A DNA stretch of 64,000 bases from Gemmatimonadota bacterium (GTDB lineage Bacteria > Gemmatimonadota > Gemmatimonadetes > Gemmatimonadales > GWC2-71-9), in assembly GCA_016720805.1 (NCBI GenBank), contig JADKJZ010000002.1, positions 213,617-277,616 on the forward strand, in the 5' to 3' direction. This document shows, in pieces, positions 36,722 to 62,322 of the stretch. Every line of letters begins with the position of its first letter. The stretch's first letter is position 1. The position numbers and the translations under genes are program-made. The notes beneath the pieces are model-generated. The model did no database searches. It saw only the letters and a list, made by a program, of their open reading frames with translations, and was not told where the DNA came from.

Positions 36722-36737
36722 CCACTATCTTCGCCCC

Positions 36738-39047: not shown

Positions 39048-39145
39048 ACGGTAAGCGGCAAGACGTGAGACGTAAGAGGTGAAACGGGTGCCCCACTGAC
39101 TCCGTTTCACCTTTTACGTTTCACGGCCGTTGTTCACCGTTCACC
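39043..39145. repeat. Heptamer-array hairpin element, GGTGAAC-related degenerate units
   Basis: Left arm 39043-39087 (ggtgaac ggtaagc ggcaaga cgtgaga cgtaaga ggtgaaa). Right arm 39102-39145. Spans both convergent stop codons (39047 and 39141). Confidence 0.75.
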
Positions 39146-39599: not shown

Positions 39600-39625
39600 G
39601 GCGAGGCAGCTCCGGTAAGAAGAGG

Positions 39626-41200
39626 ATGGGCGACTCCCCGAAGGATGCACGGCCGGGGCACACAGTCGCGTTATCGGCCGGTCAGACGTCTCCATCAGAC
39701 GATGGAGCGTCGGACATGTGCCGCGCCCCCCACTCGGGACGCCGGACTATCTTGCGAAGCCTGCGCCAGAGGCGACGGGGGAGACATGTCGGCGCACCGC
39801 TGACCGCCATTTCCCGCTACCCGCCACCCGAGGTCGCTGTCATCAATATCACCTTCCCGCCGCGCTTTCTGGCGCGGCTTTTCCGGTCGCCGGATGGGCA
39901 GGACGAGATGCTCGCCGGGCCGATCCGCGGCGAGCTGCTGGGGAGCGAGCACCTCGCGGCCCGGGTTCGTGATGCGGCCCGTGCCCAGCGACTGACCAAG
40001 GCCCGCCGTCCGCGCACGACACCCCGCCTCCTCGCGCGCCTCGACGACACGCGCCACATTCTCGACGACGCGCATGCTCGGCTGATGACCGTCGCCGACG
40101 ACGTCGACATCTCTCCCGCCGGCGAATGGCTGCTCGACAATTATCACGTCGTGCAGGAGCAGATGCGCGAGGTGCGCACCACGCTGCCACGCGGGTACTA
40201 CCGTGAGCTGCCCGAACTCGCGAGTGGCCCGCTGGCGGGCTATCCGCGCGTTTACGAGCTGGCGATCCTCCTGATTTCGCACAGCGAGGGGCGGCTCGAC
40301 GCCGAGAACATCGCGCTCGTGCTGGGTGCCTTCCAGGAGGCAACCCCGCTGGCGATCGGCGAGCTCTGGGCCATCCCCGCGATGCTCCGCCTCGGCCTGC
40401 TGGAGAGCGTGCGCCGCATGGCGCTCCGGACGGTGCAGCGTCTCGACGAGATCGGCGGCGCCGATGCGTGGGTGGCGCGGATCCTTGCCGCTGACGAGGA
40501 ACGCCCCGAGGCCCTCCGCGAAGTACTGGGCGAATTCGTCGCCGAACCCCCGGTGCTCTCGGCCGTCTTCATCTCGCGCCTCCTGCGCCAGCTTCGCGCG
40601 AGCCGCGGCGCGTTTCCGCCGCTGGCCCGCCTGGAGGCGTGGATCGGCGATCACGGCCTCCCCGCCGAGGAGGCCGACGCTCAGGCGACGCAGCGGCTGG
40701 CGCTCACGCAGTTGATGATGGCCAACAGCATCACCTCGATGCGGGCGATTGCGCAGATCAACTGGCGCGACCTGGTCGAGCAGCAGAGCGTGATGGATGC
40801 CGTGCTGCGCGGCGATCCGTCGGGCGACTATCCGCGGATGACCTTCGCCACGCGCGACTGGTATCGCCACGAAGTGGAGCGGATCGCGAAGCGAACGAGG
40901 CTGCGCGAGGAGGTGGTGGCGGCGCACGCCATCGCCCTGGCCGAGCAGGCGGAGTCCGGCGCGGCCGATGACTGCCGCCGGCACGTGGGCTACTACCTCG
41001 TCGATCACGGCTGGCGTCACCTGGTCGAGCGCACCGGGTACCGGGCCGGCCCCCGGGAGGCGTTGCATCGCTGGGTCTGCCGCCATCCGACGGCGGTGTT
41101 CGCCAGCGGCCTCGTGGCCGCCGCGTGTGCCGCCGTGGCCGCGGTCCTCTGGCTGGCGGAGCCCGCCGCGCACCCGACTGGCCCGTGCTCGTCCTGCTGA
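39626..41200 (+). CDS. cgs fragment 1 (N-terminal cytoplasmic region); true start uncertain
   Basis: The homology-like sequence begins about ..FLARLFRSPDGQDEMLAGPIRGELL. In-frame ATGs at 39716 and 39908. An ATG at 39786 lies one base out of frame. Confidence 0.6.
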   Translation: MGDSPKDARPGHTVALSAGQTSPSDDGASDMCRAPHSGRRTILRSLRQRRRGRHVGAPLTAISRYPPPEVAVINITFPPRFLARLFRSPDGQDEMLAGPIRGELLGSEHLAARVRDAARAQRLTKARRPRTTPRLLARLDDTRHILDDAHARLMTVADDVDISPAGEWLLDNYHVVQEQMREVRTTLPRGYYRELPELASGPLAGYPRVYELAILLISHSEGRLDAENIALVLGAFQEATPLAIGELWAIPAMLRLGLLESVRRMALRTVQRLDEIGGADAWVARILAADEERPEALREVLGEFVAEPPVLSAVFISRLLRQLRASRGAFPPLARLEAWIGDHGLPAEEADAQATQRLALTQLMMANSITSMRAIAQINWRDLVEQQSVMDAVLRGDPSGDYPRMTFATRDWYRHEVERIAKRTRLREEVVAAHAIALAEQAESGAADDCRRHVGYYLVDHGWRHLVERTGYRAGPREALHRWVCRHPTAVFASGLVAAACAAVAAVLWLAEPAAHPTGPCSSC

Positions 41201-44200
41201 CCCTGCTGCCGGCGATCGATGTCGCCGTGAACGCGCTCAATCAGCTCGTCACGGCGGTCCTGCCGCCGCGGGTCCTCGCGAAGCTCGACTTCCGCGAACA
41301 CGGCATTCCCGACGGCTGCCGCACCGCGGTGGTGATTCCCACCCTCTTCGACAGCGTCGCCGCGGTCGAGGACGCGCTGGAGAATCTCGAGGTGCAGTTC
41401 CTGGCCAATCGCGAATCGAACCTCCACTTCGCGCTGCTGAGCGACTTCACCGATGCGGCCACGGAAGTGGTCGACGGCGACACCGCGATCGTGGACGCGG
41501 CGACCGCGGGGATCCGCCGTCTCAACGCGCGCTACGCGCCCGACACCGAGGACGCCTGCTACCTCCTCCATCGCCCCCGCCAGTGGAACGCGGCCCAGGG
41601 CGTCTGGATGGGATGGGAACGAAAGCGCGGCAAGCTTGGCGATTTCAATCGCTTCGTCCGTGGCGACGACCATGGCGCCTTCAGCGAGACGATCGGCAAC
41701 ATGATGGCGCTGCGGCAGGTGCAATACGTCATCACGCTCGATGCCGACACGATGCTGCCGCCGGACGCCGCCCCGCTCCTCATCGGGACACTGGCGCATC
41801 CACTCAACCGCGCGGTGTACGACGCCGACCGCGGCCGGGTCGTGCGCGGCTACGGCATCCTGCAGCCGCGCGTCGCCGTGTCCCTGCCGAGCGCGCACGC
41901 GTCGCACTTCGCCGCGATCCACTCGGGACATCCCGGCGTCGACCCGTACACGACCGCCGTGTCGGACGTGTACCAGGATCTCTATGGCGAGGGTTCCTTC
42001 ACCGGGAAGGGGATCTACGACCTCGACATCTTCGAGCGGGCGACCGGCAGCCGCTTCCCCGAGAACACGTTGCTCTCGCACGACCTGATCGAGGGGAACC
42101 ACGCCCGCGCGGGGCTGGTCACCGACATCACGGTCTACGACGACTACCCGACACGATACCTGACCTGGACGCGTCGCAAGCACCGGTGGATCCGCGGCGA
42201 CTGGCAGCTGCTCTCCTGGTTGCGCCGTTGGGTACCGAGCCCCGGAGGCCGCGAACGAAACCGCCTCCCCTGGCTGTCGCGCTGGAAGATCGTCGACAAC
42301 CTTCGCCGCAGCATCGTCGAGATTGCCTTGCTCGTGATGCTCATCGTGGGATGGGCGGTGGTGCCGGTCACGCCGCTCCGCTGGACGCTGCTCGCCCTCG
42401 GCGCGATCGCGGCCCCCTGGCTCATGGCACTGCTGCTGGCCGCCCTGCGCCCACCGCTCGATGCCTCGTGGCGGGCCTACTATGGCGCGGTTGGTCGCGA
42501 CGCACTGACCTCGCTGCAACAGCTGGCGATCGCGGTGGCCGTCCTGCCGCACCAGGCCTGGACCTCAGTCGATGCGATCGGGCGCACGCTCTACCGGCTC
42601 GGCATCTCGCACCGCTTCCTCCTTCAGTGGCAGACCGCGTCCCAGGCGGAGCAGGGCACGGCCGACAGCCTCGATGCCACTTGGCGCGCCATGGCGCCCG
42701 CCCTGACCGCCACCGCCGCCCTCGTCGCGCTCGCCGCGTGGGTGGCGATCCGACACGGCGTGGACGGCACGGCCCTGGTGGTCGGCATTGTTCCGCTGCT
42801 GCTCCTCTGGGCCGCGGCGCCGGTGGCCACTTGGCGGTTGAGCGCGACGCAACACGTCGAACCGCAGCTTCGGCCAAGCGACCGTCCCGATCTGGAGCGC
42901 TATGCCGCGCTGCACTGGGCGTACTTCGAGCGCTTCGTCACGGCCGAGACCCACTGGCTGGTGCCCGACAATTTCCAGGACGATCCGGAACCGGCGATCG
43001 CCATGCGGACGTCGCCAACCAACATCGGCCTGCAACTGCTCGCGACGGTGAGCGCGCACGAGCTCGGCCTCATCTCCCTCGAGGTGATGACGGGCCGGCT
43101 CGAGGCGACGTTCGCCTCGCTCCGGGAGATGGCGCGCTATCGTGGCCACTTCTACAACTGGTACGATCTCCACACGCTCACGGTCCTGCCGCCGGCGTAC
43201 ATCTCGACGGTCGACAGCGGAAACTTCGCGGGGCACCTGGTGGCGCTCCGGCAGGGCTGCCTCGCCCTCGCCGGCACAGGTGACTGTCAGGCGCGGCTCG
43301 AGGCGATCGCCGAGCAGGCCTACGGCTTCGCGATGGCGATGGAGTTCGGCTTCCTGTACGACAAGGAGCGGCAGCTTCTGTCGATCGGCTATCAGGAAGG
43401 GAGTCATGCACTCGATCCGTCGTCGTACGACTTGCTCGCCTCCGAGGCACGCCTCGCCTCTTTCTTCGCCATCGCCAAGAATGACGTCCCGGTGGAGCAC
43501 TGGTTCCGCCTCGGACGGACGCTCACCCGCGCGTCGGGAGCGACCGCGCTGGTCTCGTGGAGCGGGAGCATGTTCGAGTACCTGATGCCGTCGCTGGTGA
43601 TGCGCGCGTTCCCGTCGACGCTGCTGGACCAGAGCTGTCGTGGCGCCGTGGCCAGGCAGGTCGCCCACGGGGCGTCGCACGGCGTCCCCTGGGGAATCAG
43701 CGAGAGCGCCTACAACCTCCGCGACCGGCACTTCATCTACCAGTACCGTGCCTTCGGCGTTCCCGACCTGGCCCTCAAGCGCGGGCTTGGTCGCGACCTG
43801 GTCGTCGCGCCCTACGCGTCGGCGCTCGCGATGCAGGTGGACGCGCCGCGCGCGCTGGCCAATCTTCGTCTCCTCGAGCGCGAGGGGGCGATCGGCCGAT
43901 ACGGCTTCCGGGATGCCATCGATTACACCCGTCCCGTTCCCGGCGAGCGACTCGCGGTGGTGCAGTCATTCATGGCGCACCACGTGGGGATGGGCCTGGT
44001 CGCCTTCACCAACGTGCTGCGCGGCGACGTCTGGCAACGGCGCTTCCACGCCGACCCGCTCGTGCAGGGGGCCGAGCTCCTGCTGCACGAACGGATTCCG
44101 CGGCGCGTCGCGCTGCAGCCCACGCAGTCGGCGCAAACCGCCGAGGCCAGGCCAGCGGCCGACGCCGACCGGCCGTCGATCCGGACCATCACCGACCCCG

Positions 44201-45084
44201 ACCTCGGCCCGCCGCGCGTGGCGCTGCTCGGGCGGCTTCCGTACACCATCATGGTCAGCAGCGGGGGGGGTGGCTACAGCCGCTACGAGGCGCTGGCCGT
44301 GACGCGCTGGCGCGCGGATGCCACGCGCGACGCGACCGGGCAGTTCTGCTACCTGCGGGATCTCACGACCGATCGGCGCTGGTCGGCGACGCACCAGCCG
44401 ATGTGCATCCCCGCGGACTGGAGCCACGCGACCCTTGCCAGCGACCGCGTCACCTTCCATCGTGGCGATGGCGACATCGAGAGTCGTACTGAGATCGCGG
44501 TCGTGCCGGACGACTCGGCCGAAGTGCGCCGGGTGACGCTGACCAACCACGGCGACGTGCCGCATGAGATCGAGCTGACGAGCTACGGGGAGATCGTCCT
44601 GGCACCGGGCGCCTCCGATCGGGCACACCCGGCGTTCTCCTCGCTCTTCGTCCAGACGGAATGGCATCCCTGGTGCAGCGCCATCACCGCGACGCGCCGC
44701 CCGCGCGCGGCAACCGATGCGGTGCACTGGTGCGTCCACGTGGTGGCGACCAGTGCCGAGCAGGTCGGCACCGTCAGTTGCGAGAGTGATCGGGCGCGCT
44801 TCCTCGGGCGTGGCCGCACGCTGCGCGACCCGGCGGCACTCGCAGGTCGATGGTCCGCTCTCAGGGGACCACCGGCCCGGTGCTCGACCCGGTCTTCGCC
44901 ATTCGGATCCGGATCCGGCTGGCGCCCGGGCAGTCCGGCTCGGTGGCCTTCACCACCCTGGTCGCGACCACCCGCGCACGCGCCTTCGAGCTGGCGGGTC
45001 GCTATCACGATCCACACGCCGCGCAACGCGCCCTCGACCTGGCGTGGACCTCGACACAGGCCGAATTGCGCGAGTTGCAGGTGA
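41125..45084 (+). CDS. cgs fragment 2 (TM, GT84 glycosyltransferase and central domain)
   Basis: The meaningful sequence runs from about DWPVLVLLTLLPAIDV (41175) to ..FLGRGRTLRDPAAL (about 44850). The tail to 45084 is out-of-frame read-through. Confidence 0.7.
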   Translation: MCRRGRGPLAGGARRAPDWPVLVLLTLLPAIDVAVNALNQLVTAVLPPRVLAKLDFREHGIPDGCRTAVVIPTLFDSVAAVEDALENLEVQFLANRESNLHFALLSDFTDAATEVVDGDTAIVDAATAGIRRLNARYAPDTEDACYLLHRPRQWNAAQGVWMGWERKRGKLGDFNRFVRGDDHGAFSETIGNMMALRQVQYVITLDADTMLPPDAAPLLIGTLAHPLNRAVYDADRGRVVRGYGILQPRVAVSLPSAHASHFAAIHSGHPGVDPYTTAVSDVYQDLYGEGSFTGKGIYDLDIFERATGSRFPENTLLSHDLIEGNHARAGLVTDITVYDDYPTRYLTWTRRKHRWIRGDWQLLSWLRRWVPSPGGRERNRLPWLSRWKIVDNLRRSIVEIALLVMLIVGWAVVPVTPLRWTLLALGAIAAPWLMALLLAALRPPLDASWRAYYGAVGRDALTSLQQLAIAVAVLPHQAWTSVDAIGRTLYRLGISHRFLLQWQTASQAEQGTADSLDATWRAMAPALTATAALVALAAWVAIRHGVDGTALVVGIVPLLLLWAAAPVATWRLSATQHVEPQLRPSDRPDLERYAALHWAYFERFVTAETHWLVPDNFQDDPEPAIAMRTSPTNIGLQLLATVSAHELGLISLEVMTGRLEATFASLREMARYRGHFYNWYDLHTLTVLPPAYISTVDSGNFAGHLVALRQGCLALAGTGDCQARLEAIAEQAYGFAMAMEFGFLYDKERQLLSIGYQEGSHALDPSSYDLLASEARLASFFAIAKNDVPVEHWFRLGRTLTRASGATALVSWSGSMFEYLMPSLVMRAFPSTLLDQSCRGAVARQVAHGASHGVPWGISESAYNLRDRHFIYQYRAFGVPDLALKRGLGRDLVVAPYASALAMQVDAPRALANLRLLEREGAIGRYGFRDAIDYTRPVPGERLAVVQSFMAHHVGMGLVAFTNVLRGDVWQRRFHADPLVQGAELLLHERIPRRVALQPTQSAQTAEARPAADADRPSIRTITDPDLGPPRVALLGRLPYTIMVSSGGGGYSRYEALAVTRWRADATRDATGQFCYLRDLTTDRRWSATHQPMCIPADWSHATLASDRVTFHRGDGDIESRTEIAVVPDDSAEVRRVTLTNHGDVPHEIELTSYGEIVLAPGASDRAHPAFSSLFVQTEWHPWCSAITATRRPRAATDAVHWCVHVVATSAEQVGTVSCESDRARFLGRGRTLRDPAALAGRWSALRGPPARCSTRSSPFGSGSGWRPGSPARWPSPPWSRPPAHAPSSWRVAITIHTPRNAPSTWRGPRHRPNCASCR

Positions 45085-48000
45085 CCCCGCTCGCAGCATC
45101 CCTCTTCCAGGACCTGGCTGGGCACCTGCTCTACTCGACGGGCCAATTTCGGGCGCCGCAGGAGGAGCTCTTCCGCAGTCGCGGGTCGCAGCCACTCCTC
45201 TGGGCTCATGGCATCTCGGGGGATTGGCCCATTCTCCTCGCGATCATCGATGGCGACGAGGGGATGTCCACCCTGCGCGAACTCCTCGCGGCACACCACT
45301 ACTGGCGCCGACGCGGCATGATGGTCGACCTCGTGGTGCTGAACGCGCAAGCGTCCACCTACCTGCAGGCGGTCAACGACAGCATCACGGCGATGATGTT
45401 CTCGCTCGGTGAGGCCACCGTGCTCGATCGTCCGGGCGGCGTCTTCCTGCGGCGCGCCGACCAACTTGGCGCCGACGACCTCCTGATGCTGCGCACCACC
45501 GCGCGCGTGCTGATCACATGCGATGGTCGGTCGCTCGAGACGATCCTTCGTGACGGCACCACCGAGGCGCAGGCCACGCCGACCGCCGAACCGGAACGGC
45601 GGGCTCCGGCGCCTCGTTCCTCCACCCAGCGTGCCTCGCGCGGGAGCCGGATGCGGCAATGGCTCGGCGTGCCGATGTCGGGGGCCGTGGCGCCAGTGCC
45701 GGCGGTCCGGCCCGCCGAGCGGGCGGGCGCCCTGCCATCGCGCGGTGCTGCTGGTCCGCCGCTGCAGCTGGACAACGGCTTCGGCGGCCTCACCGCGCAG
45801 CACGACTACCAGATTCGCGTCCAGGGCGACGACCTGCCGCCGGCGCCCTGGGTCAACGTGGTCGCCAATCCGCTGGGTGGCTTCGTCGTCAGCGAGCGAG
45901 GCGCCGGCTTCACCTGGGCCGGCAACAGCTACTTCTATCGCCTCACGCCTTGGCACAATGACCCGGTCAGCGACCCGATCAGTGATGTGCTCTACCTCCG
46001 CGACGAGGAGAGCGGCGACCTCTGGAGTGCGACGCCGGCGCCGGTCGGCGACGACATCGCCTACGTGGTGCGGCATGCGCCGGGGCGGTCGGTCTTCCAG
46101 CACGAGCACCGGGACATCAGTACCGAACTGACCCTTGGCATGGTCGAGGGAACCTCGGTCCGGGTGTCGCGTCTCCGCCTGACCAACACCGGGACGGTGT
46201 CCCGCCGTCTCTCGGTCACGGCGTATGTCGAGTGGACTCTCGGCGTGCGGCGTGAGCAGACGCAGCACCACGTGCGCACGGAATTCGTTCCGGCGCTCAA
46301 CGCGATCCTGGCGCGCAACCCCTTCGATCCGCAGTTCGCCGATCAGGTCGCGTTCTGTGCACTGGGTGATACGGCGGTCTCGCACACCGGCGATCGGCGG
46401 GCCTTCCTCGGGCCCAATGGCACTGTGGCCCATCCCGCTGCCCTCGCCGGGCGCCCGGGCACTGGCCCCGCCCTGGATGGCCGGACTGGCGCCGGCATGG
46501 ACCCGTGCGCCGCGCTGCAGTGCGTGATCACGCTGGCACCCGGCGAAACGCGGGAGATCGTGAAGTTGCTCGGCGCGACTGGCAGCGAGGCGGAGGCGCG
46601 CGCCGCTGTCGGGACCTGGGCCACGACCACCGCAGCCAACGATGCCCTTGGCCTCGCCGACGCCACCTGGGCGGCGCGACTCTCCGTGGTGACGGTTGCC
46701 ACGCCGGAGCCCTCGTTCGACGCGTTGCTCAACCGCTGGCTGCTCTATCAGACGCTGGCCTGTCGACTCTGGGCGCGGTCGGCGCTGTACCAGAGTGGTG
46801 GCGCGTACGGATTCCGCGACCAGCTGCAGGATGTGATGGCACTGGTCTACGCCGAGCCAGCCATCGCGCGGGAGCACATCCTGCGGGCGGCGGCGCGGCA
46901 ATTCGTGGAGGGCGACGTCCAGCACTGGTGGCACGCGGAGAGTGGCCGGGGGACCAGGACGCGCTTCTCGGACGACCTCGCCTGGCTTCCGTACGTCGTC
47001 GATCACTATGTCCGCGTGACTGGCGACCGCGCGGTGCTCGACGAGATGGTGCCGTTCCTCACCATGCGCGCGCTGGAACCGCACGAGGACGAGCTGTACG
47101 ATCAGCCGAGAATCAGCCGGGAGGTCGCCAGCGTCTACGAGCACTGCCTGCGGGCCATCCGCAAGGCCGCCACCCAGGGGCCGCACGGCCTGCCGCTCAT
47201 CGGCTCGGGCGACTGGAATGACGGGATGAGCCGAGTCGGTGTCGGGGGAACCGGGGAGAGCATCTGGCTTGGCTGGTTCCTGGTCACGGTCGCCCGGGGC
47301 TTCGCCGCGCACGCCGACGCGCGCCAGGACCACGTGGCAGCCGCGATGCTCCGCACGCAGGCCACCGCATACGTCGAGGCGGTTGAACTGCATGGCTGGG
47401 ATGGCGACTGGTATCGGCGTGCCTACTTCGATGACGGCACCCCGCTCGGCTCGGCCAGCAACGAGGAATGTCGCATCGATGCCATTGCGCAGAGCTGGAG
47501 CGTGCTCTCGGGTGCGGCGCGGCCGGAGCGTCAGGCCAGGGCGATGCGGGCCCTCGAAGAACAGCTGGTGCGCGAGGACGGCCGCTTGATCATGCTGCTC
47601 ACCCCGCCGTTCGATCGCGGCACCAGCGACCCCGGATACATCAAGGGGTACCTGCCGGGGGTGCGCGAGAACGGGGCGCAATACACCCATGCGGCGCTCT
47701 GGGCGGTACTTGCCGTGGCGGAACAGGGCCGCGGCGCGCGCGCCTTCGAACTCTTCCAGATGCTCAACCCGCTGATGCATGCACGGACGCCGGAGGAGGT
47801 CGCGACCTACAAGGTCGAGCCGTACGTCGTGGCGGCTGATGTCTATACGGTGGCCGGACAGCTCGGTCGCGGAGGATGGACCTGGTACACCGGCGCGGCG
47901 AGCTGGATGTACCGCGTCGGCCTCGAAGGGATCCTCGGTTTCCGGAAGCGTGGCAACGCCTTCACGATCATGCCGACGGCGCCACCCGCCTGGCCCGTGT

Positions 48001-48200
48001 ACTCCATCGACTACCGCTTCGGCGCGAGCCACTACCACATCGAGGTGCGGAATCCCGAGGCGCTGGTGTCGGGCCACATGCGCATCACCGTGGATGGCGC
48101 GCCGGTCGAGGGCGGCGAGGTGCCGTTGATCGATGACGGGCGGACGCGGCAGGTAGTCGCGATCCGAGAGCCGGGGCGGACGGCTACCGTCTTCGGCTGA
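44850..48200 (+). CDS. cgs fragment 3 (GH94 phosphorylase-like C-terminal domain)
   Basis: ..TTGPVLDPVFAIRIR.., and GGAYGFRDQLQD and GSGDWNDG motifs typical of GH94. Confidence 0.7.
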   Translation: MVRSQGTTGPVLDPVFAIRIRIRLAPGQSGSVAFTTLVATTRARAFELAGRYHDPHAAQRALDLAWTSTQAELRELQVTPLAASLFQDLAGHLLYSTGQFRAPQEELFRSRGSQPLLWAHGISGDWPILLAIIDGDEGMSTLRELLAAHHYWRRRGMMVDLVVLNAQASTYLQAVNDSITAMMFSLGEATVLDRPGGVFLRRADQLGADDLLMLRTTARVLITCDGRSLETILRDGTTEAQATPTAEPERRAPAPRSSTQRASRGSRMRQWLGVPMSGAVAPVPAVRPAERAGALPSRGAAGPPLQLDNGFGGLTAQHDYQIRVQGDDLPPAPWVNVVANPLGGFVVSERGAGFTWAGNSYFYRLTPWHNDPVSDPISDVLYLRDEESGDLWSATPAPVGDDIAYVVRHAPGRSVFQHEHRDISTELTLGMVEGTSVRVSRLRLTNTGTVSRRLSVTAYVEWTLGVRREQTQHHVRTEFVPALNAILARNPFDPQFADQVAFCALGDTAVSHTGDRRAFLGPNGTVAHPAALAGRPGTGPALDGRTGAGMDPCAALQCVITLAPGETREIVKLLGATGSEAEARAAVGTWATTTAANDALGLADATWAARLSVVTVATPEPSFDALLNRWLLYQTLACRLWARSALYQSGGAYGFRDQLQDVMALVYAEPAIAREHILRAAARQFVEGDVQHWWHAESGRGTRTRFSDDLAWLPYVVDHYVRVTGDRAVLDEMVPFLTMRALEPHEDELYDQPRISREVASVYEHCLRAIRKAATQGPHGLPLIGSGDWNDGMSRVGVGGTGESIWLGWFLVTVARGFAAHADARQDHVAAAMLRTQATAYVEAVELHGWDGDWYRRAYFDDGTPLGSASNEECRIDAIAQSWSVLSGAARPERQARAMRALEEQLVREDGRLIMLLTPPFDRGTSDPGYIKGYLPGVRENGAQYTHAALWAVLAVAEQGRGARAFELFQMLNPLMHARTPEEVATYKVEPYVVAADVYTVAGQLGRGGWTWYTGAASWMYRVGLEGILGFRKRGNAFTIMPTAPPAWPVYSIDYRFGASHYHIEVRNPEALVSGHMRITVDGAPVEGGEVPLIDDGRTRQVVAIREPGRTATVFG

Positions 48201-49692: not shown

Positions 49693-49778
49693 CAGGGGGG
49701 CTCCAGGGGGAGGGGTGCTCCCTGACGGTTCGCCATGGAGGTCGCGATGGATGCAGGATGGCCGGTGGGCCAACCCAA

Positions 49779-50120: not shown

Positions 50121-50139
50121 GTCCGCCGCCTCGCGACGA

Positions 50140-50752: not shown

Positions 50753-50768
50753 GAGTGGGTGCTCCAGG

Positions 50769-53589: not shown

Positions 53590-54088
53590 TGCTCGCCACG
53601 CTGATCGACACGCTCACCCGCTGGTGTGCGCCATGGCAGGCGTTCTATGCCGATTCCCGACTGACCGAGATCGCGGTCACTTCGGTGCACGTCGTGGCGA
53701 TGCTGGTGGCGGCGGCTTCGCCGTCGCGGCGGACCGACTCACGCTGCGCACGACGCGGCGCGAGACGGCCGACCGGATGGCGATGCTTGAGGAATTGCAG
53801 TCGGTGCACCGGCCGGTGAAGATCGGATTGGCGGCGCTGTTCGCGAGCGGCGTGGCGCTTGCGGCTTCCGATGTCGAGACCTTCTCGGCCTCGCCCGCGT
53901 TTCTGGTGAAACTGGCGTTGGTCGCGCTCCTCTCGGTCAACGGGCTGGTCATGTTGCGTGCCGAGCGGTTGCTCCGGCGCGATCCGACCGACGCGCGATG
54001 GGGAACGTTGCGCCGGGTCAGTTGGTTCTCGCTGATGCTCTGGATCAGCACCGCCGTCGTCGGGGTCGTGCTGGTCAATGCGGCGTGA
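53589..54088 (+). pseudogene. Four-TM membrane protein (possibly CopD-like), one frame change
   Basis: ATG 53589 overlaps the preceding TGA (TGATG). MLATLIDTLTRW..VTSVHVVAMLVA continues as GGFAVAADRLTLR.. in ORF 53624-54088. The switch is near 53700-53715. Confidence 0.6.
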
Positions 54089-54139
54089 GTGCGCTGCACC
54101 GACGTCGGTCCTCCACCATTGTCCTGCCCTGAGGTTGCC

Positions 54140-54668
54140 GTGAACGATAGCAGCGAACACAACGATGACGCCGCCTGCGAAGGCTGCGAATTGACCCGGC
54201 CCCGCCGGGAATTCCTGAAGGAGATCGGCGCGGCCGCGATGGGCGCGCTGCTGCCTGGCTGGCATTCCGGCCGAGGTGGCCGCGGCGATGGAGCCGCGTC
54301 GCGTCACGGCCAGCGGCCGCGTCGGGGCAGATCCGACCTATCCGGTACCGGCCGCCGACGGCGTGCAGATCGACAAGGTGAACGAGGTGATCCTGGTCCG
54401 CTGGCAGAACAGTGTCTGGGCCTTCAACCTCTCCTGCCCGCACCAGCGGACGGCGTTGCGGTGGACCGAGGCCAAGCACGAGTTCCAGTGTCCGAAGCAC
54501 AAGTCGCGCTACCAGCCCGACGGCACCTTCATCGCCGGCCGCGCCACCCGCCACATGGATCGCTTCTCGATCACGCGGACCGGGACCGACGTCATCGTGC
54601 ACGTCGGGGCGATGCACAAAAGCGACGCGGACCAGGCAAGCTGGTCCGCGTCGGTGGTGAAACTCTGA
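54140..54668 (+). pseudogene. Tat-exported Rieske [2Fe-2S] protein, frame change inside the signal peptide
   Basis: gagg SD, GTG 54140. The Tat motif TRPRREFLKEIGAAAMGALL is in the ORF 54089 frame. The mature part (..LAGIPAEVAAA.., CPHQRT .. CPKHKSRY) is in the ORF 54276-54668 frame. The switch is at about 54254. Confidence 0.7.
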
Positions 54669-54686
54669 TCGGTATCGCGCGGCGCC

Positions 54687-57290
54687 CTAGCGCGCCCGGC
54701 CCAGCCGGCGATCTTCCGGGTCCGTGGTAAACCGGCCGCGCACGATCAGGGCGACGCTCTTCCGGAAGATCGAGGCGCTCGGGAAGGGCAATGCGGACTG
54801 CGTGGCGGAGCACCCAGGCGGCGGTGAGCAGTTCTTGCCCGGCGCGCAGGGGCCGCCGTTGAAGTTGATGCGCCGACCATACCCGCCATTCGGCAGCTGG
54901 AAGCGGAGCACCAGCTCGGGCTGACGGTTTCGCGTCACCAGCTGCGCGTTCGGCAGCGGGCCGATGTCAAACTGGAAGGTGACCAGCCGATCGACACCGC
55001 CGTTGCCTTCACTCTCGCCCCCCAGGAACGCGATCGCCGAGGCGCTGAACGACTGCGTCTGGGGCGCACCCGTCGTAGCGTTCTTCACCACCCGCTCGGC
55101 CACCAATGTCATTGGGTACGCGATCGGACCGCTCTGCCCAGCGTTGCCTCGGCCGAGAGGTACAGGCCGATGGAACGCACCAATCCGCCGGCACCCACCG
55201 GACCGGGAATGGTGAAGTAGTACGCGGCGATGTCGTCCCGAAACGCGGCGGGGGTGCAGGCGTTGATGGTCGTGTAGGCGGAGGAATGCGTCGCGGTGTA
55301 GAAGAGCTCCGCGCCCCCCGGCGTCGACTGCAGCGAGGCGCGCAGTTGATTCTCCCCTTCGCCAGGGCACCCGGTGACCGACGCACTCCCGTCGGCCCCG
55401 GTGGGGGTCGTGGCCGTCAGCGGCGCGCCGTTCACGGTGGCACCCATGGCGCCGCCTGGTGTCCAGAAGACCGGGACACCAACCTGCGGGTTGTTGAATT
55501 GGTCGGTGACCCGGACGGTCGGCGTCGGGCTGACCGCACCGCCGTTCACCTTGCCATACGCCGTGGGGCCGACCGCCACAAACCGCAACGCGGCACCGGG
55601 CGCGACATCGAAGAGGTTGCTCCCCGTGGTGCTGGACACGAGCCCCGCGTCGCCGAGCGTCGCAGCGGCAGCGAATCGATAGCCCGTGGCCGCCTGCAGG
55701 ATCGTGGTGCTGAAGGTGGCCACCCCGTTGACCGCATTGGTGACCTTTGTCGTGGCACCGCCGTCAAAGCTGTTCTTGTTCAGCGATAGCGTCACCGGGT
55801 TCGACGCGGTCGGCACGATCGTGCCCAAGTCGGAGCGCACCTCGACGCGGGCGGGGATCAACGCACCGGCGCTGTAATTGCCCGCGGCCGGTTGGGTGAA
55901 GACGAGGCTGCTTGCCCCATACGCGGCGATCAGCCAGCTCGGCGCCTCCGGGACAAACTCGATCACAGTCGGGTCGAGGTTGGCCGGTGGCGTGAGCGTC
56001 GCAGTCAGCTTGGTGTAGGCGGTGCGGAGGTCGGACGTCGTGCCGAAATTGATGCAGCCGACGGCCGCAGTCCCGGCGGCGTTGGTGGCGGCGTCGGCGC
56101 CGCAGACCGAGGCGTTACCCGGCTTCGCGCTGTAGGGCGCCACGGTGGACGGTGCCGTCGTCCAGGCGGCGGTGACGCCCGGAATCGGCGTCCCCTGGCG
56201 GGTCTTGACCGTGATCGTCGGGAGGCCCGCGCCGGTGCGGGTCGTGCCGACGGTGCCATCGATCGTGGTCACGAGGAGGGCGTCGCGGACGAACTCGCTG
56301 GTCGACCCGCCGACGCCGCCCGAGGCGAAGAGCTGCGGGTCAACCGGCTCGAACGGCGAGAACTCGCTGGTCGCGCCGCCGATGCCGCCGCTGCCCGCGA
56401 AGCGACCGGCAGCGGCGAGCGGTGCGGGGCGCACCACGCTCGCCAGCGCGTCGAGGAGTCGACCACCCCAGCTCGACGGGATCGCGGCCGAGGTGATCGC
56501 CCCGCACGCGAGCGTCATCTCCGGCGGAATGTTGACGCGCGGAGCACCTCGAAGGTGGCCGGGTTTTTCTGGTGGGCGAGCACCAGCCGCGCCAGCAGCG
56601 AGTCGATTTCATTCGCCGGCACGTTGATGAGTTCTACGGGATCCGGGCAGACGCCGACGATCGCCTTCGTGCCCGGCTTCAGCGTCTGGGCAGGCGACAC
56701 CGTCCACTCATAGATGAACGCGTACTTGTCGAGCGGCGTCGTGAGGGCGTTCGGGTCAGTGAGCCGGCGCGCCGTCACGATGGTGTTCTCGACGACCGCA
56801 TCCGGCGGGAACTGGGCTCCGGACTGGCGGTCCAGCGTCTGCAGCGTGGTCATCGGGTCGCCGACGTGCACGACCCACGTCTCCTTGGGGTTCGCGATCC
56901 CGGCGTCGATGCCGACGTAACAGAAGATCTGGTTCAGCACCGAGGCGAGGGTCGCCGGCGACAACGCCACCTGCTGGTTCGCGTCGTTGGCGAGGAGGAA
57001 GTCGACCAACTCGAACGCCTTCGCCTTGGCCAGCGTCGCATTGTTCGCGTTCGTCGCCTGCACGACGGCGTTCCAGGTGCTCGTGGCGGTGAAGCTGTTG
57101 GCGAGCGACGAGAAGCCGCTCGACAGTGCGCCCGGATCTGCACGGGGTCCGCCGTGCACGCGGCAGCGTCCGCCGCGCGGCCGCGCGTCGGGACGGCGCC
57201 AGTGGCCTGATCGGCCAGCGAGGCGGAGTCTCCGCATGCCGTGGCAAGCAACAGCACCGCGAGCAGCGGCAACCGGGTGGAACGAAGCAC
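54687..57290 (-). pseudogene. Large surface lipoprotein with Ig-like repeat region, spread over four frames
   Basis: MLRSTRLPLLAVLLLATAC (57290), then LSSGFSSLANSF..AHQKNPATFEVL (ORF 56515-58011 tail), then NIPPEMTLACG..Ig-like T/G/V-rich repeats (ORF 55109-56518), then GNAGQSGPIAYPMTLVAERVV.. (ORF 54687-55370). Confidence 0.65.
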
Positions 57291-57533
57291 GACGCCTCCA
57301 GGGGGAATCAGGAGGGAGTGCGGTGGGATGGACGCCGAGCGTACCGCCTCGGCGATTCATCCTGCCACCCCCAATGGCGATTGATATACGCCACAGTCGA
57401 AAAGTCCGCAATGGTGTTGCGCGCGCGTTACACCCATGTGGGCCAGTTGCGACGGGCATTTCCCGGGTCCCGGATGCCAAACGCCCCACCCGGTGGGGGG
57501 TGGGGCGCCGTGGGATCCGCTGGCCGGTGCCGG

Positions 57534-60154
57534 CTAGTTGGCGAGCAGCTTCTTGAAACCGGGAGTCTCGGCGATCGGGCGATACCACCACCCCGGGTAG
57601 GCCACGAGCGCCTTCCGCCGATCGTCGCTCTTGGACAGATAGGTCTTCAGGTCGGCCAGGGCAGCCGTCGTGTCGCCGCGGAGCGCGCCGACGAAGGCCG
57701 CGAACTGTGGCAGTTCGAGATTGGGGTCGATGTCCGGGTTGCCGCGCGACCGGTCGACCACCCGCTTGGCACTGTCGCCGAGGCCGGCGCGCGCGAGCAC
57801 CGCCGCCACCAGCAGGTCGCTCTTGAAGCGCTCGAACTGCTGCTGCGGCTTCGGCGCCATCGCCGTGATCGAGTCGGCCAGCTTCCACGCGAGCGGGACG
57901 TCCCACTCCTTCTTCTTCGACGTCTCGAGGTAGAGCTTGCAGCGCGGCGCCTGGGACGAGGCGGGGTAGCGGCGCTGCATCTCGTCGCACCAACGCGTGG
58001 CAGTTGTCCACTCCTCCGTGTCATACGACGCGAGGATGAGCCGGTTCAAGACCACCTGCGCGTTGCTGAGGAAGGCGTCGGCCTCCCACGCCTTCTCGGC
58101 AGCCCGGTAGATGTCCCTTGGTGAGACTTCCGGAATCGCGTAGTAGAGGTGTGAGAGCGACGCCCACGCCCCGGCCTGATTGGGGTTGAGCTCCGTCGCC
58201 TTCTCGAGGTCGGCGCGCGCCGCCGTGAGCAACGCCGACTGCTTCTCCTTCTCGGCGTCAACCTTCACCAGATAGCGCCAGTACTGCAGGTTGCCGCGCA
58301 ACTCCAGTGCGTTCGGGTCCTGCGGCTGCAGCGCCAGCGCCCGGTTGATGTGCGCGAGGCCCGCGTCGATCGGCGCCTTTGCCTCGAGTGGATCGGCGTT
58401 GCGGCGCGACGTCTCGTACGCCAGCCGGGCCCGTCCGATGATCGGGTCGGGCCACTTCGGGTCGAGGGTCTCTGCCTGGGCCAGCAGCGTGTCGGCCTGG
58501 GCGCGGATCAGCAACGCGCTGTCACCCTTCGTGGCCGCCGCGCTCTTCCGGAGTCGTTCGGCCGCTGCACGAGCAACCACGCATCGTTGTTCGACGTGGC
58601 TCGGCGTTGCTCCTTCAGCAGCACCTCGCCGCCGATGCGCTCACGGATCAGGGTAGCCACTTCGGTCACGGTCGAATCGCGCACCGCCGCGAAGTTGCGG
58701 CCATCCACCATGAAGCTCTTGGGGTCGCCGAAATCGACGCCGGAGTTGCCGTCGAGCAGGCGGATCGACACCCTGATCTTGTCGCCCTGCTGGTCGAGCG
58801 TCCCCTTGACCAGCGTCCCCGCATTCAGCGCCTTGCCGATGTCCTCGGGCGGGATCGAGTCATTGCCGCGATACTGGCCGACACCACCCGCGGAGATCAC
58901 GGCGAGGCCCGGGATGGTGTTCAGGTTCTCGATCAGCGCTTCGGTCAAACCATCGGCGAGCGTGGCGAGTGAATCGCCAGTCTGGAAGTAGAGCACCGCG
59001 ATCCGCTTCTTGGACAGCCCGCCGCTGTCGGCCAGCGGCACCGGCTTGCCACCCGCCGTCAGCTTGTACGCACCGAATCCGCCCCCGGCCAGCACCAGCA
59101 ACGCGACCCCGAGCACCATTGGCCGCTTCCAGAGCGGCACCGGCATCGGAGCGGCGACCCCGAAAGCGCTCGTCATCCCGCTGGTGGTGCGGCGCGCCGT
59201 GGTGTGCCGCATCGTCATCATGCGGGTCGACGTCGCGCCCGCCGGCATCGGCGCCGCGACCAGCAGGGCGGCAAACGCCGCCGCGCTCTGGGGCCGATCG
59301 GCCGGCGACTTCCCCAGCGAGCAGAAGATCGCGTACTCGACTTCCTCGGGTACCGATTGCCGGATGATCCGGAGCGACGGCACCTGCTCCATCACGTGCT
59401 TCGCGAGGATCGCCGAGGCGTTCTTCCCGCTGAACGGCGGCTCGCCGGCGAGCATCTCGAACAGCATGCAGCCGAGCGAGTAGATGTCCGCGGTGACGCC
59501 GACCTTCTCGCCCATCCCCTGTTCGGGGGCCATGTAGGTCGGCGTGCCCAGCGCCATCCCGGTCTGCGTCAGTTGCTGCGCCATCCTCGACCGCGCGGGC
59601 AATGCCGAAGTCGGCTACCAGCGCGTGGCCGCCGCTGAGCAGGACGTTCTCCGGCTTGATGTCGCGGTGGATGACCTGCTGCTTGTGGGCGTACTCGAGG
59701 GCGTCGGCCACTTCGAGCGTGATCTGCAGCGCATCCTCGACGGAGAGCTGGCCTTCACGGTCGAGCCGGTCGCGCAGCGACTCCCCCTCGACGAACGGCA
59801 TGACGTAGTAGAGCAGCCCGTCGGAGACGCCCGAGTCATACATCCCGAGGATGCGGGTGCTGCAGGCGCCCGGCACTGCGGATCTCGCGCTCGAAGCGCT
59901 CGCCGCCGATCGAGGCGGAGAGGTCCGGGTGGAGGACTCACGGCCACCTTGCGGTCGTGCTTGATGTCGCGGGGTCGGGAAGACCGTGGCCCATGCCCCC
60001 ACGGCCAAGCTCCCGCCCGAACGCATAGCGATCGGCGAGGTGGGTTTGCAGTCGTTCGAGGTGGTATCGGCCAAGCTGGAGGCCTCGGGCCGGAGAGGGT
60101 TCGGAGCCAGCGATAAGTCCGGCCCCGAAGAACGCGCCAGCGGTGGAGGGCCAA
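57534..60154 (-). pseudogene. Ser/Thr protein kinase with TM, TolB-N-like and TPR C-terminal regions; at least six frame changes
   Basis: LADRYAFGRELGRGGM / ATVF / RDIKHDRKVAV / VLHPDLSASIGGERFEREIRSAGRLQHPH / ILGMYDSG..HRDIKPENVLL..ADFGIA / MAQQLTQTGMALGTPTYMAPEQ.. / TPR tail are read in successive different frames. The 5' boundary is uncertain. Confidence 0.7.
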
Positions 60155-60246
60155 TCCGCCGCCGGAGGCTCGATTCCGGGTACCCCCGCTTAGATTTCCC
60201 CTGCGGCCACTTTGCCGTCCTTCGTCCCCGGCACGAGTGAGTTCGC

Positions 60247-60534
60247 ATGAGCGCCTACAAGACCCTGCAGCGTCGCCTGACCCTTGGCGGACGCGAGTAC
60301 CATTTCGTCACCTGCGAGGGTCAGCGGGCCAATCCGTCGCGCAATCACCCCGAGGTGCCCCCCACCTGGGCGCTGATGGCCGCCGGCAAGCGCTGGACGG
60401 TCATGCCGGAGCTGGCGGATCAGGACGAGGCCGAGATCGACCGCCAGTTGCTGGCGTGGCTGGGCGAGCACATGGGCAGCGAGCCGGGGATCATCGCCGA
60501 CCGGGGCGATCCGGCCAGCGGCCGGAAGGGATAG
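60247..60534 (+). CDS. Hypothetical protein (95 aa)
   Basis: ATG-initiated ORF divergent from the kinase. No motif recognised. Confidence 0.4.
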   Translation: MSAYKTLQRRLTLGGREYHFVTCEGQRANPSRNHPEVPPTWALMAAGKRWTVMPELADQDEAEIDRQLLAWLGEHMGSEPGIIADRGDPASGRKG

Positions 60535-60576
60535 CAACCCGCCGGTCCTGCCGCCGCTCCCCGCAGCGGCGACCGG

Positions 60577-61206
60577 TCACCCCGGCATCCCGTCGAAAAA
60601 GGTGACCACCCCGGTCTCCAGCGAATATTCCGCCCCCACCACCAGCAGACCATCCTCCCGAATCAACTGCTCCAGGATCTCCGAGCCATGCCGCAAGTGG
60701 TCCGCGGAGGCGCGGATGTTGGCGCGGACCGCTTCGGCCACCAGGGCGTCGTGGGCCTGCGCGAGCGGCGTGTCGAGGAGCGACTCGACCGACGGCCGCA
60801 CCAGGTCGACAATCGCCCGGATGTTGCGCGAGTGGGTTGAGCTCGGCGAGGGGTGCTGCAGTTCCTCGATGGTCGCCACGATCGCTCCGCACTGGGAATG
60901 GCCCAGGACCACCACCAGCCTGGTGTGAAACCGCTCGGCCGCGAACTCGACGCTCCCTACCAGCGAGGGGGCGACGATGTTGCCGGCGACCCGGATCACA
61001 AAGAGATCGCCGAGTCCCTGGTCGAAGACGATCTCGGCCGGGACCCTGGAATCGGCGCAGCCGAGGATGATGGCGAATGGCTCCTGCCCTTCGGTCAGCT
61101 CCGCTCGGCGGGCCTGATGAAGCACCGGCGCGCCGCCGCTGACGCTGGTATTGAAGCGGAGATTGCCGGCCCGGAGTCGGGCGAGGGCTTCGTGGGCAGG
61201 GATCAT
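60577..61206 (-). CDS. Beta-class carbonic anhydrase
   Basis: GCADSRV and GHSQCGA zinc-ligand motifs. 209 aa, intact. Confidence 0.9.
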   Translation of the reverse strand: MIPAHEALARLRAGNLRFNTSVSGGAPVLHQARRAELTEGQEPFAIILGCADSRVPAEIVFDQGLGDLFVIRVAGNIVAPSLVGSVEFAAERFHTRLVVVLGHSQCGAIVATIEELQHPSPSSTHSRNIRAIVDLVRPSVESLLDTPLAQAHDALVAEAVRANIRASADHLRHGSEILEQLIREDGLLVVGAEYSLETGVVTFFDGMPG

Positions 61207-61278
61207 GGAGGAAGGGTACTACCGCGGCGGGGTGGGCGGTGAGGGGATGGTCCGAAGTTCTCCGGAGGGAACGACGAA

Positions 61279-61310
61279 CGGCCTGGTGAGAGTAGGTTCT
61301 CGCCAGGCCG
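61279..61310 (-). terminator. GC-rich hairpin downstream of the zinc-ribbon gene
   Basis: cggcctgg..gaga-gtaggt-tctc..ccaggccg. On the minus strand it is followed by ttcgtcgtt (a weak U-tract). Confidence 0.35.
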
Positions 61311-61377
61311 CCAAAAGTGTCGATTTTTAATACACTTTGCTGGTCACTTATTGATCAGCCGTTCGCGCCATTACCTG

Positions 61378-62173
61378 CTACTTCGTCGGCGTCGTCTTCA
61401 GGAAGTCGTCGAGCAGAGAGCGGTGGGCCAGATACTCGGGGCGCTTCAACGCGACCTCGGTATCGAAGTGTTGTCGGAACGCGAGCCGCGCCGCGCGCCC
61501 GGCGGCGACGTTCCCCTGATAGTCCGCGATGAGTGCGCGGAGATAGTCGACCAGGAGATGATTCTCCGCGCTGGCGACGATCGTGTCGACCTGCGCGACC
61601 GCACCAGGGAAGTGACCGACCTGCGCACGCAGCAAGGCGAGATGAAAGCGCAAATCGTTGTTGCGATCGGCAGTCGGGAGATTGGTGAAGGCCTGCTCCA
61701 TCATCGGGAAGAATCGGACGACCGTGGCGGTGTCGCCGGACTGCACCGACGTCTCGGATTCGATCCGACAATCGCAGGAATTGCTCTTGGGGACTGAGTT
61801 TCGAGAGATCTGGCGGGGTGCCATCCGATACCACGGCTCCACTCGGCGACGTGGTCTCACCGCTGGTGACGGTTGGACTCGGACGCGATGCGGCCCACCC
61901 CAATGCCGCAATCGCCGCGACCCCGAGCATCGCCGGTATGGTCCAGCTGCGCGTCCCGCGCGGGGTGGCCACGCTCGGTGTGTCGGGGGCCGACGGTTGC
62001 GCGTCACCACCGAAACTCGTCCCACAATTCGCGCAGAACATCGCACCCGGCGGCGCCACGATGCCGCATTGCCGACAGGCTGATTCGGCGATCGCCGTGC
62101 CGTAGCTCTCGTAGAATCTGCCGTGGACCGATGCGCCGCACTGGGGACAGGATGTCGAAGATGAATGGTGCAA
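61378..62173 (-). pseudogene. Zinc-ribbon membrane protein with helical C-terminal domain, one frame change
   Basis: MHHSSSTSCPQCG..FYESYG..CRQCG..FCANCG, a TM helix, ..LSPQEQFLRLSDRI (ORF 61355-62173). It then continues as E(S)ETSVQSGDTATVVRFFPMMEQAF..TTPTK in ORF 61378-62448. The switch is near 61752-61770. Confidence 0.6.
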
Positions 62174-62322
62174 TGGGCCTCCGCCGCATCAACTGATTGA
62201 CCTGAATCATTCACGGGGCACGCTCGAATCCGGCCCGCAATCTGCTTCACGTACAAGTGTACAAAGAATGCACACCGATTCCGATACTGCCGGGTTGTAA
62301 GATCCGTATCCGACCGGATAGG

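Follow-up and report, generated by a model that had tools for sequence, protein, structure and literature searches.

Consensus indels in Nanopore assemblies depend on coverage, and even R10.4 data required a depth of approximately 40x to yield near-finished genomes (PMC9262707). The IDEEL test, which looks for truncated proteins, serves to measure the indels of long-read assemblies, and frameshift-correction tools exist to remedy them (PMC9262707; bioRxiv 10.1101/2021.08.23.457338). The metagenome-assembled genome GCA_016704275.1 (G010) is a CANU/Nanopore assembly with a depth of about 11–16x, as judged from two unlabelled columns of a supplementary table (PMC8012365). G010, which belongs to the GTDB genus Palsa-1233 and originates from activated sludge, and GCA_037045245.1 (G015) are the relatives compared here with the window, a stretch of 64,000 nucleotides from a Gemmatimonadales bin (assembly GCA_016720805.1, contig JADKJZ010000002.1), in which adjacent genes are broken by frameshifts.

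The lesions of the window are like long-read indel errors in that they are small, are mostly deletions, split reading frames whose orthologues are intact, and become denser where low depth is expected, while substitutions are much less affected. Unlike typical errors of this kind, they form sharply bounded blocks at redundant, strain-forked contig ends and are neither evenly distributed nor confined to homopolymers. Haplotigs and strain-switching contigs, which belong to the strain-separation problem (PMC8302730), have a shared segment followed by divergent branches that are present as separate contigs, one of them attached to the shared segment. The bin studied here has the same organization; however, its branches are only 78–95% alike, which corresponds to a species-level rather than strain-level difference, and all three are held in one bin. 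Pseudogene-rich decaying genomes also contain many adjacent frameshifted genes with catalytic motifs that are still recognizable. By contrast, the lesions in the window are private to one assembly, its substitutions are not relaxed, insertion sequences are absent, and the redundant copies are damaged too. We propose, with a probability of roughly 0.8, that the frameshifts are not mutations but arose as errors in the consensus of a long-read metagenome assembly. From about 50 kb, the contig would continue into an alternative-strain copy, poorly resolved, of a region that is present three times in the bin.

Mosaic organization of the window

The nearest relative changes along the window, as read from informative sites and a 500-nt identity profile. 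In the following list, C13 and C14 are other contigs of the same bin, and C2 is the contig that carries the window.

1–30,400: own-lineage segment of the bin; genes intact; 76–93% identity to G015 and 87–97% to G010
30,404–50,100: G015-like block with the efflux operon, cgs and the S41 peptidase; 97–100% identity to G015; coding lesions only in cgs
49,776–49,780: fork point; homology to C13 starts from C13:626 and homology to C14 from C14:1
50,040–50,206: junction patch with deletions of 2, 1, 2, 2 and 43 nt; G015-like sequence gives way to G010-like sequence inside it, at 50,100–50,200
50,200–64,000: G010-like tail; 95–99.8% identity to G010; redundant with C14:1-44380 and with C13; runs on past the window

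Informative sites are divided 15:0 between G015 and G010 in the bin at 49,700 and 0:15 in the bin at 50,300, and they are mixed at 50,100–50,200. The first-pass annotation had considered a chimeric join near 39–40 kb. The window is about 99% G015-like across that position, where the sole event is an extra 965 nt in G010 that encode a 278-residue-long protein. A join of the proposed kind is indicated instead by the switch of nearest relative at 50.1–50.2 kb and the start of C13 and C14 homology at 49,776–49,780; the idea was right in kind and wrong in place.

An earlier switch of nearest relative, at about 30.4–30.8 kb, starts at an operon boundary and has no garbled patch in the window. The block between the two switches is about 99% identical to G015, compared with a background of 86–90%. 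It is a candidate exchanged block of 19.7 kb (30.4–50.1 kb), in which an ECF-sigma/efflux operon and the cyclic-glucan synthase gene (8.4 kb) are located. It is conceivable, if somewhat doubtful, that sister species of this activated-sludge genus that occur together recently swapped blocks of tens of kilobases, in which case the mosaic would be biological while the frameshifts would not.

No known assembly matches the tail exactly, the identity being at most about 98%. With a divergence of 2–3% from all other assemblies, the tail stems from a distinct, real strain, which may in principle have real mutations.

Genes affected by the lesions

The first-pass annotation reported that several named genes are split over more than one reading frame, and multi-segment tblastn matches of intact orthologues against the window bear this out. 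The features of the affected part of the window are as follows, with the numbers of frame segments determined by tblastn.

39,752–48,200, + strand: cgs, cyclic beta-1,2-glucan synthase-like (GH94 domains); lesions at 41176 (-1) and 44841/44863; three frame segments
48,184–49,692, - strand: S41 peptidase; intact
50,117–50,788, - strand: OmpR-type response regulator; lesions at 50124, 50142, 50202 (43 nt) and 50619; two frame segments, C-terminus missing
50,769–52,053, - strand: GAF-HisKA-HATPase histidine kinase; lesions at 50895, 50925, 50944, 50992, 51026/51034, 51153/51160 and 51859; two frame segments and a garbled stretch with mutually cancelling shifts
52,965–54,668, + strand: three small genes, encoding a 208-residue protein, a 172-residue protein (weakly DUF6644-like) and a Rieske protein; lesions at 53511, 53708 and 54253; two segments each for the gene at 52965 and the Rieske gene, and a match without the first 46 residues for the gene at 53571
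54,687–57,290, - strand: 868-residue lipoprotein with a weak Big_1 match; lesions at 55142, 56541 and 57134; four frame segments
57,534–60,074, - strand: Ser/Thr protein kinase of about 850 residues; lesions at 58563, 59578, 59852, 59938, 59971, 59990 and 60060; three frame segments, first 75 residues without a match
60,247–61,206: 95-residue protein gene (+ strand) and beta-carbonic anhydrase (- strand); both intact

The lesions at 41176 and 44841/44863 distribute cgs over three frames, whereas its orthologues are single open reading frames of 2815 residues in G015 and 2773 residues in G010. Two further lesions, at 60108 and 60148, are positioned just upstream of the start of the Ser/Thr kinase gene. 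Genes interspersed with the damaged ones are intact, as had been noted before: the S41 peptidase, the protein of which is 100% identical to that of G015, the beta-carbonic anhydrase, and the protein encoded at 62563–63396. The zinc-ribbon gene, previously listed as damaged, belongs with them; over its whole length of 95 codons, identity to the orthologue is 100%, and the indel at 60536 falls at the end of the gene or beyond it.

Extent of the lesion region

The window contains 33 frameshifting indels (of lengths not divisible by three) at 50,619–63,643. At every one of these sites it differs from all of the 3–9 independent contigs that cover the position, which include MEGAHIT-style (k127/k141-named) contigs of ENA assemblies and one JGI contig. 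Thirty of the private sites lie at 50,619–62,200. Together with about five further deletions in the patch at 50,040–50,206 and two lesions in cgs, they agree with an earlier count of at least 25. The coexistence of net -1 and net +1 shifts is also borne out, with about 25 deletions and 8 insertions among the 33 sites. About half of the single-base deletions are outside any homopolymer, and the longest run involved is 4 nt. Such a distribution fits the noise of raw reads at low depth rather than the classic homopolymer signature.

The observation of a lesion-rich region is real and has been partly confirmed, but the boundaries assigned to it, 39.6 and 62.2 kb, are wrong. The lesions in cgs (41176; 44841/44863) are the only ones in the window at 39.6–50.0 kb and the only two coding lesions at 9–49.7 kb; the regime changes sharply at about 50.04 kb. 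In the other direction, window-private lesions reach at least 82 kb from the window start, with one 2-kb bin as the single-lesion exception, and the intrinsic frameshift scan remains high up to the contig end, 96.5 kb from the window start.

Redundancy of the bin and the probable assembly fork

C13:626 aligns to C2:263392 (window 49,776) and C14:1 aligns to C2:263396 (window 49,780). The fork is located between the S41 peptidase gene and a 114-codon gene. Since the homology of both contigs starts at window 49,776–49,780, the bin holds the region three times, as colinear copies at C2:263392-307814, C13:626-23225 and C14:1-44380, which are 78–95% alike. From about 50 kb of the window, C2 continues for 46.7 kb to its end; C13 covers about 21.6 kb of this tail region, and C14, a 1.13-Mb contig, covers about 44 kb. 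The first 49.8 kb of the window are single-copy in the bin, whereas the downstream part is present in three copies. The contamination score of the bin is 0.77% despite its holding all three branches. Other overlapping contig ends in the bin are C1/C6, C4/C11, C4/C12 and C7/C16.

A frame-tracking hidden Markov model that is independent of relatives identified 368 frameshift candidates across the genome. Redundant contig ends constitute 5.1% of the bases and contain 107 of the candidates (29%), which corresponds to 5.9 candidates per 10 kb, compared with 0.78 in the rest of the genome (Poisson P ~2e-44). The top-scoring bins are C12:1-10k, C13, C2:280-310k, C6:1-10k and C14:1-10k. These values come from a looser setting of the model and represent relative densities rather than full lesion counts; at the first setting, with a switch penalty of -12, only six candidates were found in the window because dense lesions were decoded as non-coding.

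All three copies are damaged, each at sites of its own. In a five-way alignment of 49.8–60.1 kb, the window has 25 private frameshifting indels, of which 23 are deletions; C13 has 24, C14 has 108, G010 has two and G015 has none. Neither this alignment nor the 3–9 covering contigs contain a lesion that the window has in common with any relative or other sample, and the relatives lack the broken frames of the window, which they would share if these were a real feature. G015 has a frameshift patch of its own at positions equivalent to 30.1–33.8 and 37.4 kb of the window, where the window and G010 are intact.

Substitution pattern

Private substitutions at codon positions 1, 2 and 3 number 22, 15 and 61 in the window and 14, 11 and 75 in its sister G010, whereas those in the head of C14 are flat (80, 87 and 63). 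The private coding substitutions of the window and G010 are thus similar both in number (98 and 100) and in codon-position pattern, and the divergence between the two by codon position is 1.26, 1.05 and 5.27%. The even spread over codon positions expected after inactivation is not seen in the private substitutions of the window. The dominance of third positions in both genomes indicates that selection was at work during the whole of their divergence; the 25 frameshifts of the window did not come with a burst of substitutions. At first and second positions, the window has slightly more private substitutions than G010 (37 vs 25), which could reflect slightly relaxed selection or a few substitution errors. 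The possibility that the tail is G010 sequence with pure noise was rejected, because third positions account for most of its substitutions, which are balanced by the private changes of G010. Judged by these comparisons, the tail comes from a real lineage of its own, onto which indel noise is superimposed.

Origin of the frameshifts

Of the explanations put forward in the first-pass annotation, a locally poor consensus at a place where strains vary in a long-read assembly is the best one, supported by the triple redundancy, the private lesions and their density at redundant ends. The source community would contain several closely related populations of this Gemmatimonadales genus, which diverge in structure and sequence at window 49,776–49,780. 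There the assembly would fork into the rest of C2, C13 and the head of C14, with the reads, presumably from a long-read platform, split among branches of presumably low depth. Because each branch would have a part of the reads, its consensus would retain small indels, mostly 1–2-nt deletions. The path of C2 would connect the G015-like segment to the G010-like branch inside the garbled 170-nt patch at 50,040–50,206. Since the join lies within that patch, the window is very probably chimeric there, and we infer that the assembler, rather than natural recombination, created the join.

It is improbable, although less so than the other alternatives, that the frameshifts are consensus errors in a contig that is not chimeric, with the mosaic formed by natural homologous recombination among sister populations that occur together, and C13 and C14 being co-binned strains. 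The switch at 30.4 kb, at an operon boundary and without a garbled patch, is in line with such an origin, as is the lack of an exact match of the tail to any known assembly (at most about 98%). The locus is also variable in structure among strains, with the regulator-kinase pair missing from L107 and L109, which makes a natural rearrangement at this spot plausible. However, the switch at 50.1–50.2 kb is inside a 170-nt patch with five deletions, about 350 nt past the start of C13 and C14 homology, and single-copy sequence followed by three copies is the pattern of a collapsed segment and a subsequent fork.

It is very improbable that the frameshifts are real and belong to a strain in which relaxed selection allows an accessory block of signalling and envelope genes to be lost. 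Nine adjacent genes are damaged while a few interspersed ones are intact, the strain is distinct by 2–3% from all others, and the slight excess of private first- and second-position substitutions points in the same direction. By contrast, none of the lesions is shared with any of the 3–9 independent assemblies, third positions still dominate the private substitutions in a pattern of purifying selection, and the damage begins at the assembly fork rather than at the boundary of a gene block. The damage in the two other copies of the region is as great or greater and lies at other sites, and every redundant contig end of the bin has damage of the same kind. The natural ratio of indels to substitutions is about 0.03–0.1. 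The 25 private frameshifts against 98 private coding substitutions are far above this ratio, and no insertion sequences accompany them. Nothing speaks for programmed ribosomal frameshifting, or for phase variation at repeats, beyond the presence of the frameshifts, and the sequence contexts, together with orthologues that are intact, in effect refute both: the lesions lack slippery heptamers and long simple repeats (runs are at most 4 nt), several genes have 4–7 lesions each with garbled stretches between paired shifts, and the orthologues are plain single reading frames.

It is almost certain that errors of sequencing and assembly account for the broken genes, which are then no sign of gene decay. 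Claims of pseudogenes, gene loss or unusual architecture from 50–64 kb of the window should be discounted, as should those from C2:263.4-310 kb, C13, C14:1-44 kb and the ends C1/C6, C4/C11, C4/C12 and C7/C16, all of which would be duplicated strain variants with noisy consensus. Self-alignment of a bin to find redundant contig ends, followed by a comparison of lesion density inside and outside of them, is a cheap check that does not require reads.

Heptamer hairpins

Nine intergenic hairpins, formed by inverted arrays of tandem heptamers, span 1065–39,160 of the window:

~1065, 5183, 6056/6164, 12729, 15837, 17432, 27402, 36631 and 39061

Reading of the intergenic gaps together with TRF reproduces the earlier observation of nine hairpins upstream and none downstream within the window; searches for perfect 7-nt stems or single motifs had missed the hairpins, which the gaps and TRF revealed as inverted arrays. 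The suggested connection between the heptamer-free stretch and the lesions does not hold, and the hairpins appear to be unrelated to the lesions: the stretch is also free of heptamers in G010 and G015, where the genes are intact, and the arrays resume farther along the lesion-rich tail.

Extent and signature of the lesions

Gemmatimonadales metagenome-assembled genomes (MAGs) are the relatives of the window, and two close ones from the same genus served as yardsticks: G015 (GCA_037045245.1, contig JBAOHR010000003.1) and G010 (GCA_016704275.1, JADJAK01; GTDB family GWC2-71-9, genus Palsa-1233), which originates from activated sludge. The bin containing the window comprises 3.5 Mb in 16 contigs (C1 to C16, the window lying on C2 at 213617-277616) with 68% G+C. 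The evidence on the lesions is comparative and is complemented by sequence-intrinsic statistics. Gene models were transferred from intact relatives, with names assigned via Pfam.

Gene models (window coordinates, strand)
39752-48200, +, GH94 cyclic beta-1,2-glucan synthase-like gene (cgs)
48184-49692, -, S41 peptidase
49779-50120, -, 114-aa gene
50117-50788, -, OmpR-type response regulator
50769-52053, -, GAF-HisKA-HATPase histidine kinase
52965-54668, +, 208-aa, 172-aa, and Rieske genes
54687-57290, -, 868-aa lipoprotein
57534-60074, -, Ser/Thr kinase
60247-60534, +, 95-aa gene
60531-61206, -, beta-carbonic anhydrase

The frame changes listed in the first-pass annotation for 39.6-62.2 kb are present in tblastn alignments of intact proteins to the window. 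The S41 peptidase and the carbonic anhydrase are undamaged, as that annotation had stated, and so is the 62563-63396 protein. Both limits of the affected region, however, have to be moved. A three-way alignment with G010 and G015 was scored over 9-49.7 kb for indels private to the window whose length is not a multiple of three. Some of these fall in intergenic heptamer arrays; four sites at 32.6-33.6 kb are each paired with a neighboring G010 gap and are best read as additional bases in G015; and cgs contains such indels at two sites, 41176 and 44841/44863. From 50,040 onward there are 1-12 per 2 kb, and they extend beyond the window, reaching at least 82 kb as counted from its start. Therefore, the boundary is at approximately 50.04 kb rather than 39.6 kb, and the affected region does not stop at 62.2 kb. 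Beyond the window, C2:280889-283127 (67.3-69.5 kb from the window start) contains diverged tandem repeats with a period of ~219 nt at the site of the long multihaem-cytochrome-like genes, whose products have 670 and 1078 aa in relatives; the repeats make the indel counts there unreliable.

The lesions are chiefly 1-2-nt deletions. Approximately half of the single-base deletions fall within short dinucleotide repeats or runs of 2-4 identical bases; the others lie outside any run. This signature is closer to what residual raw-read noise would leave at very low depth than to systematic homopolymer error. The number of indels in Nanopore consensus sequences drops with coverage, and near-finished genomes needed about 40x even with R10.4 (PMC9262707). 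G010 was assembled from Nanopore reads with CANU, and Racon, medaka, and Illumina reads were used for polishing; its pipeline retained unpolished sequence (Racon --include-unpolished), and two unlabelled supplementary-table columns give 11.5 and 15.8 for it, which look like depths (PMC8012365).

Lesions compared with other assemblies

In a five-way alignment of 49.8-60.1 kb, private frame-breaking indels number 25 in the window (23 deletions), 24 in C13, 108 in C14, 2 in G010, and 0 in G015. Damage at differing sites in three co-binned branches, with clean outside assemblies, does not look like biology. Nine further independent contigs cover the locus at 95-98% identity: four belong to NCBI MAGs, including G010 itself, four have MEGAHIT-style names (k127/k141) and come from ENA assemblies, and the last is a JGI contig. 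Between 50,619 and 63,643, the window has a frame-breaking indel at 33 sites (25 deletions, 8 insertions) relative to every covering contig, 3 to 9 at each site. The lesions are almost certainly assembly artefacts.

G015 has its own frameshift patch, a cluster of single-base insertions at ~50.7-54.5 kb and 58.0 kb of its contig C3 (window-equivalent 30.1-33.8 and 37.4 kb), which fragments genes of the TolC/MacAB region and a DUF5916-like gene. Because these genes are intact in the window and G010, patchy indel noise is a property of these assemblies, with its location differing in each. A single frameshift of G010's own at 58806 splits the Ser/Thr kinase into 408 and 440 aa.

Frame switches on the same strand and away from stop codons were also flagged by a seven-state, stop-aware, 3-periodic Markov model trained on the long open reading frames of the bin, without the use of relatives. 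Of the 368 candidates genome-wide, 107 lie in redundant contig ends, which account for 5.1% of the bases; this corresponds to 5.9 per 10 kb vs 0.78 elsewhere (Poisson P about 2e-44). The worst 10-kb bins are all redundant contig ends. Along C2 the counts per 10 kb are 0-2 over 260 kb, and then 4, 3, 11, 10, and 7 to the end. The private lesions and the density in redundant ends support the earlier suggestion of a locally poor consensus in a strain-variable region.

Proposed strain fork and probable chimeric junction

When the relatives and the C2 tail were used as BLAST queries against the bin, three colinear copies with 78-95% mutual identity were identified.

Copies in the bin
C2:263392-307814, copy 1
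C13:626-23225, copy 2
C14:1-44380, copy 3

Homology to C13 begins at window position 49,776, and base 1 of C14 aligns to 49,780. Since the upstream 49.8 kb is single-copy and the three downstream copies start together, the arrangement would represent a three-way strain fork downstream of a shared or collapsed segment, with one branch joined to that segment and two remaining as contigs that begin at the fork. The C2 tail resembles G010; C13 is 98.4% G015-like over its first 11 kb, and the head of C14 is 94-96% G015-like. C13:1-625 has no match in the rest of the bin, contig C9 of G010, or contig C3 of G015, and homology is abrupt from C13:626. Two further related loci, L107 (GCA_016709975.1) and L109 (GCA_016717965.1), lack the regulator-kinase pair in the equivalent of 50.1-52.9 kb, and L107 has a sulfatase, not cgs, beside the S41 peptidase, which marks the fork point as a hotspot of structural variation among strains.

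By its identity profile, the window is a mosaic.

Identity of the window to the two relatives
Up to ~30.4 kb: G015 76-93%, G010 87-97%
30.5-50.0 kb: G015 97-100%, G010 77-98%
50.0-64 kb: G015 74-94%, G010 94-99.8% (one 500-nt bin 92.6%)

Sites informative between the relatives are 15 to 0 for G015 in bin 49,700 and 0 to 15 in bin 50,300. They are mixed at 50,100-50,200, within a garbled patch (50,040-50,206) with deletions of 2, 1, 2, and 2 nt and one of 43 nt. A chimeric join, proposed previously for 39-40 kb, is thus probable in kind; however, the nearest relative switches at 50.1-50.2 kb. We assign a probability of about 0.8 to the combined explanation, in which the lesions come from a low-quality alternative-strain branch joined at this probably chimeric site. 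The branch would comprise the final 14 kb of the window and the 32 kb of the contig that remain beyond it. The main residual alternative accepts the lesions as errors and attributes the mosaic to natural recombination.

The 19.7-kb block at 30404-50100 shares 97-100% identity with the sister species G015, compared with a background of 86-90%; it begins at the first gene of an ECF-sigma/efflux operon and stops at the assembly fork. It reflects either a genuine exchange in the recent past or the assembler switching strains a second time. At 39645-39677, G010 has 965 additional nt (a 278-aa gene) between a small secreted protein and cgs.

Redundant contig ends representing strain variants occur throughout the bin.

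Other contig-end overlaps (87-96% identity, very many gaps)
C1:1-13073 and C6:1-11154
C11:86822-91485 and C4:35891-40562
C12:1-8916 and C4:1013-9860
C16:1-4848 and C7:105294-110140
C15:199556-201054 and C7:899-2407

Most of these ends are enriched in intrinsic frameshift candidates; the exceptions are the ends of C1 and C15 and, close to the starts of C7 and C4, the two segments of those contigs.

Selection on the block

Relaxed selection on the block, another of the proposed explanations, is not supported, given lesions private to the window and private substitutions dominated by third codon positions. Over 50-62.2 kb, the window differs from G010 by 1.26, 1.05, and 5.27% at codon positions 1, 2, and 3, and private substitutions number 22/15/61 in the window and 14/11/75 in G010. 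The similar counts and pattern indicate sister branches of about equal length, both under purifying selection. By contrast, in the visibly error-ridden C14 head they are flat over codon positions (80/87/63). Judged from these patterns, the genes cannot have drifted as pseudogenes, yet they would have had to acquire at least 25 independent frameshifts recently.

Heptamer hairpins

The nine upstream hairpins exist as described, each consisting of two inverted arrays of 3-7 tandem heptamers.

Intergenic heptamer hairpins
1065-1170
5183-5262
6056-6195
12729-12763
15837-15951
17432-17538
27402-27478
36631-36720
39061-39145

The heptamers belong to several unrelated families (GGATGAT, TAGTCGT, ATCGATC, GCGAACA, and GTGAAAC), and the bin contains 1139 period-7 arrays (TRF). 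Relatives have arrays in matching gaps, often with different heptamers and variable lengths. The heptamer-free stretch is not tied to the lesions, because the relatives share it and arrays return in the lesion-rich C2 tail. Arrays of at least three units are absent from G010 over window-equivalent 39.1-71.4 kb, save two GC-rich period-7 matches within cgs, and from G015 over 39.1-61.2 kb; the first 22 kb of the allelic C14 head has no heptamer arrays. The gap is a conserved trait of this gene block, whose genes are long and tightly spaced. In the C2 tail, arrays return at 71.4, 78.7-78.9, 88.5, 90.7, and 94.1 kb from the window start.
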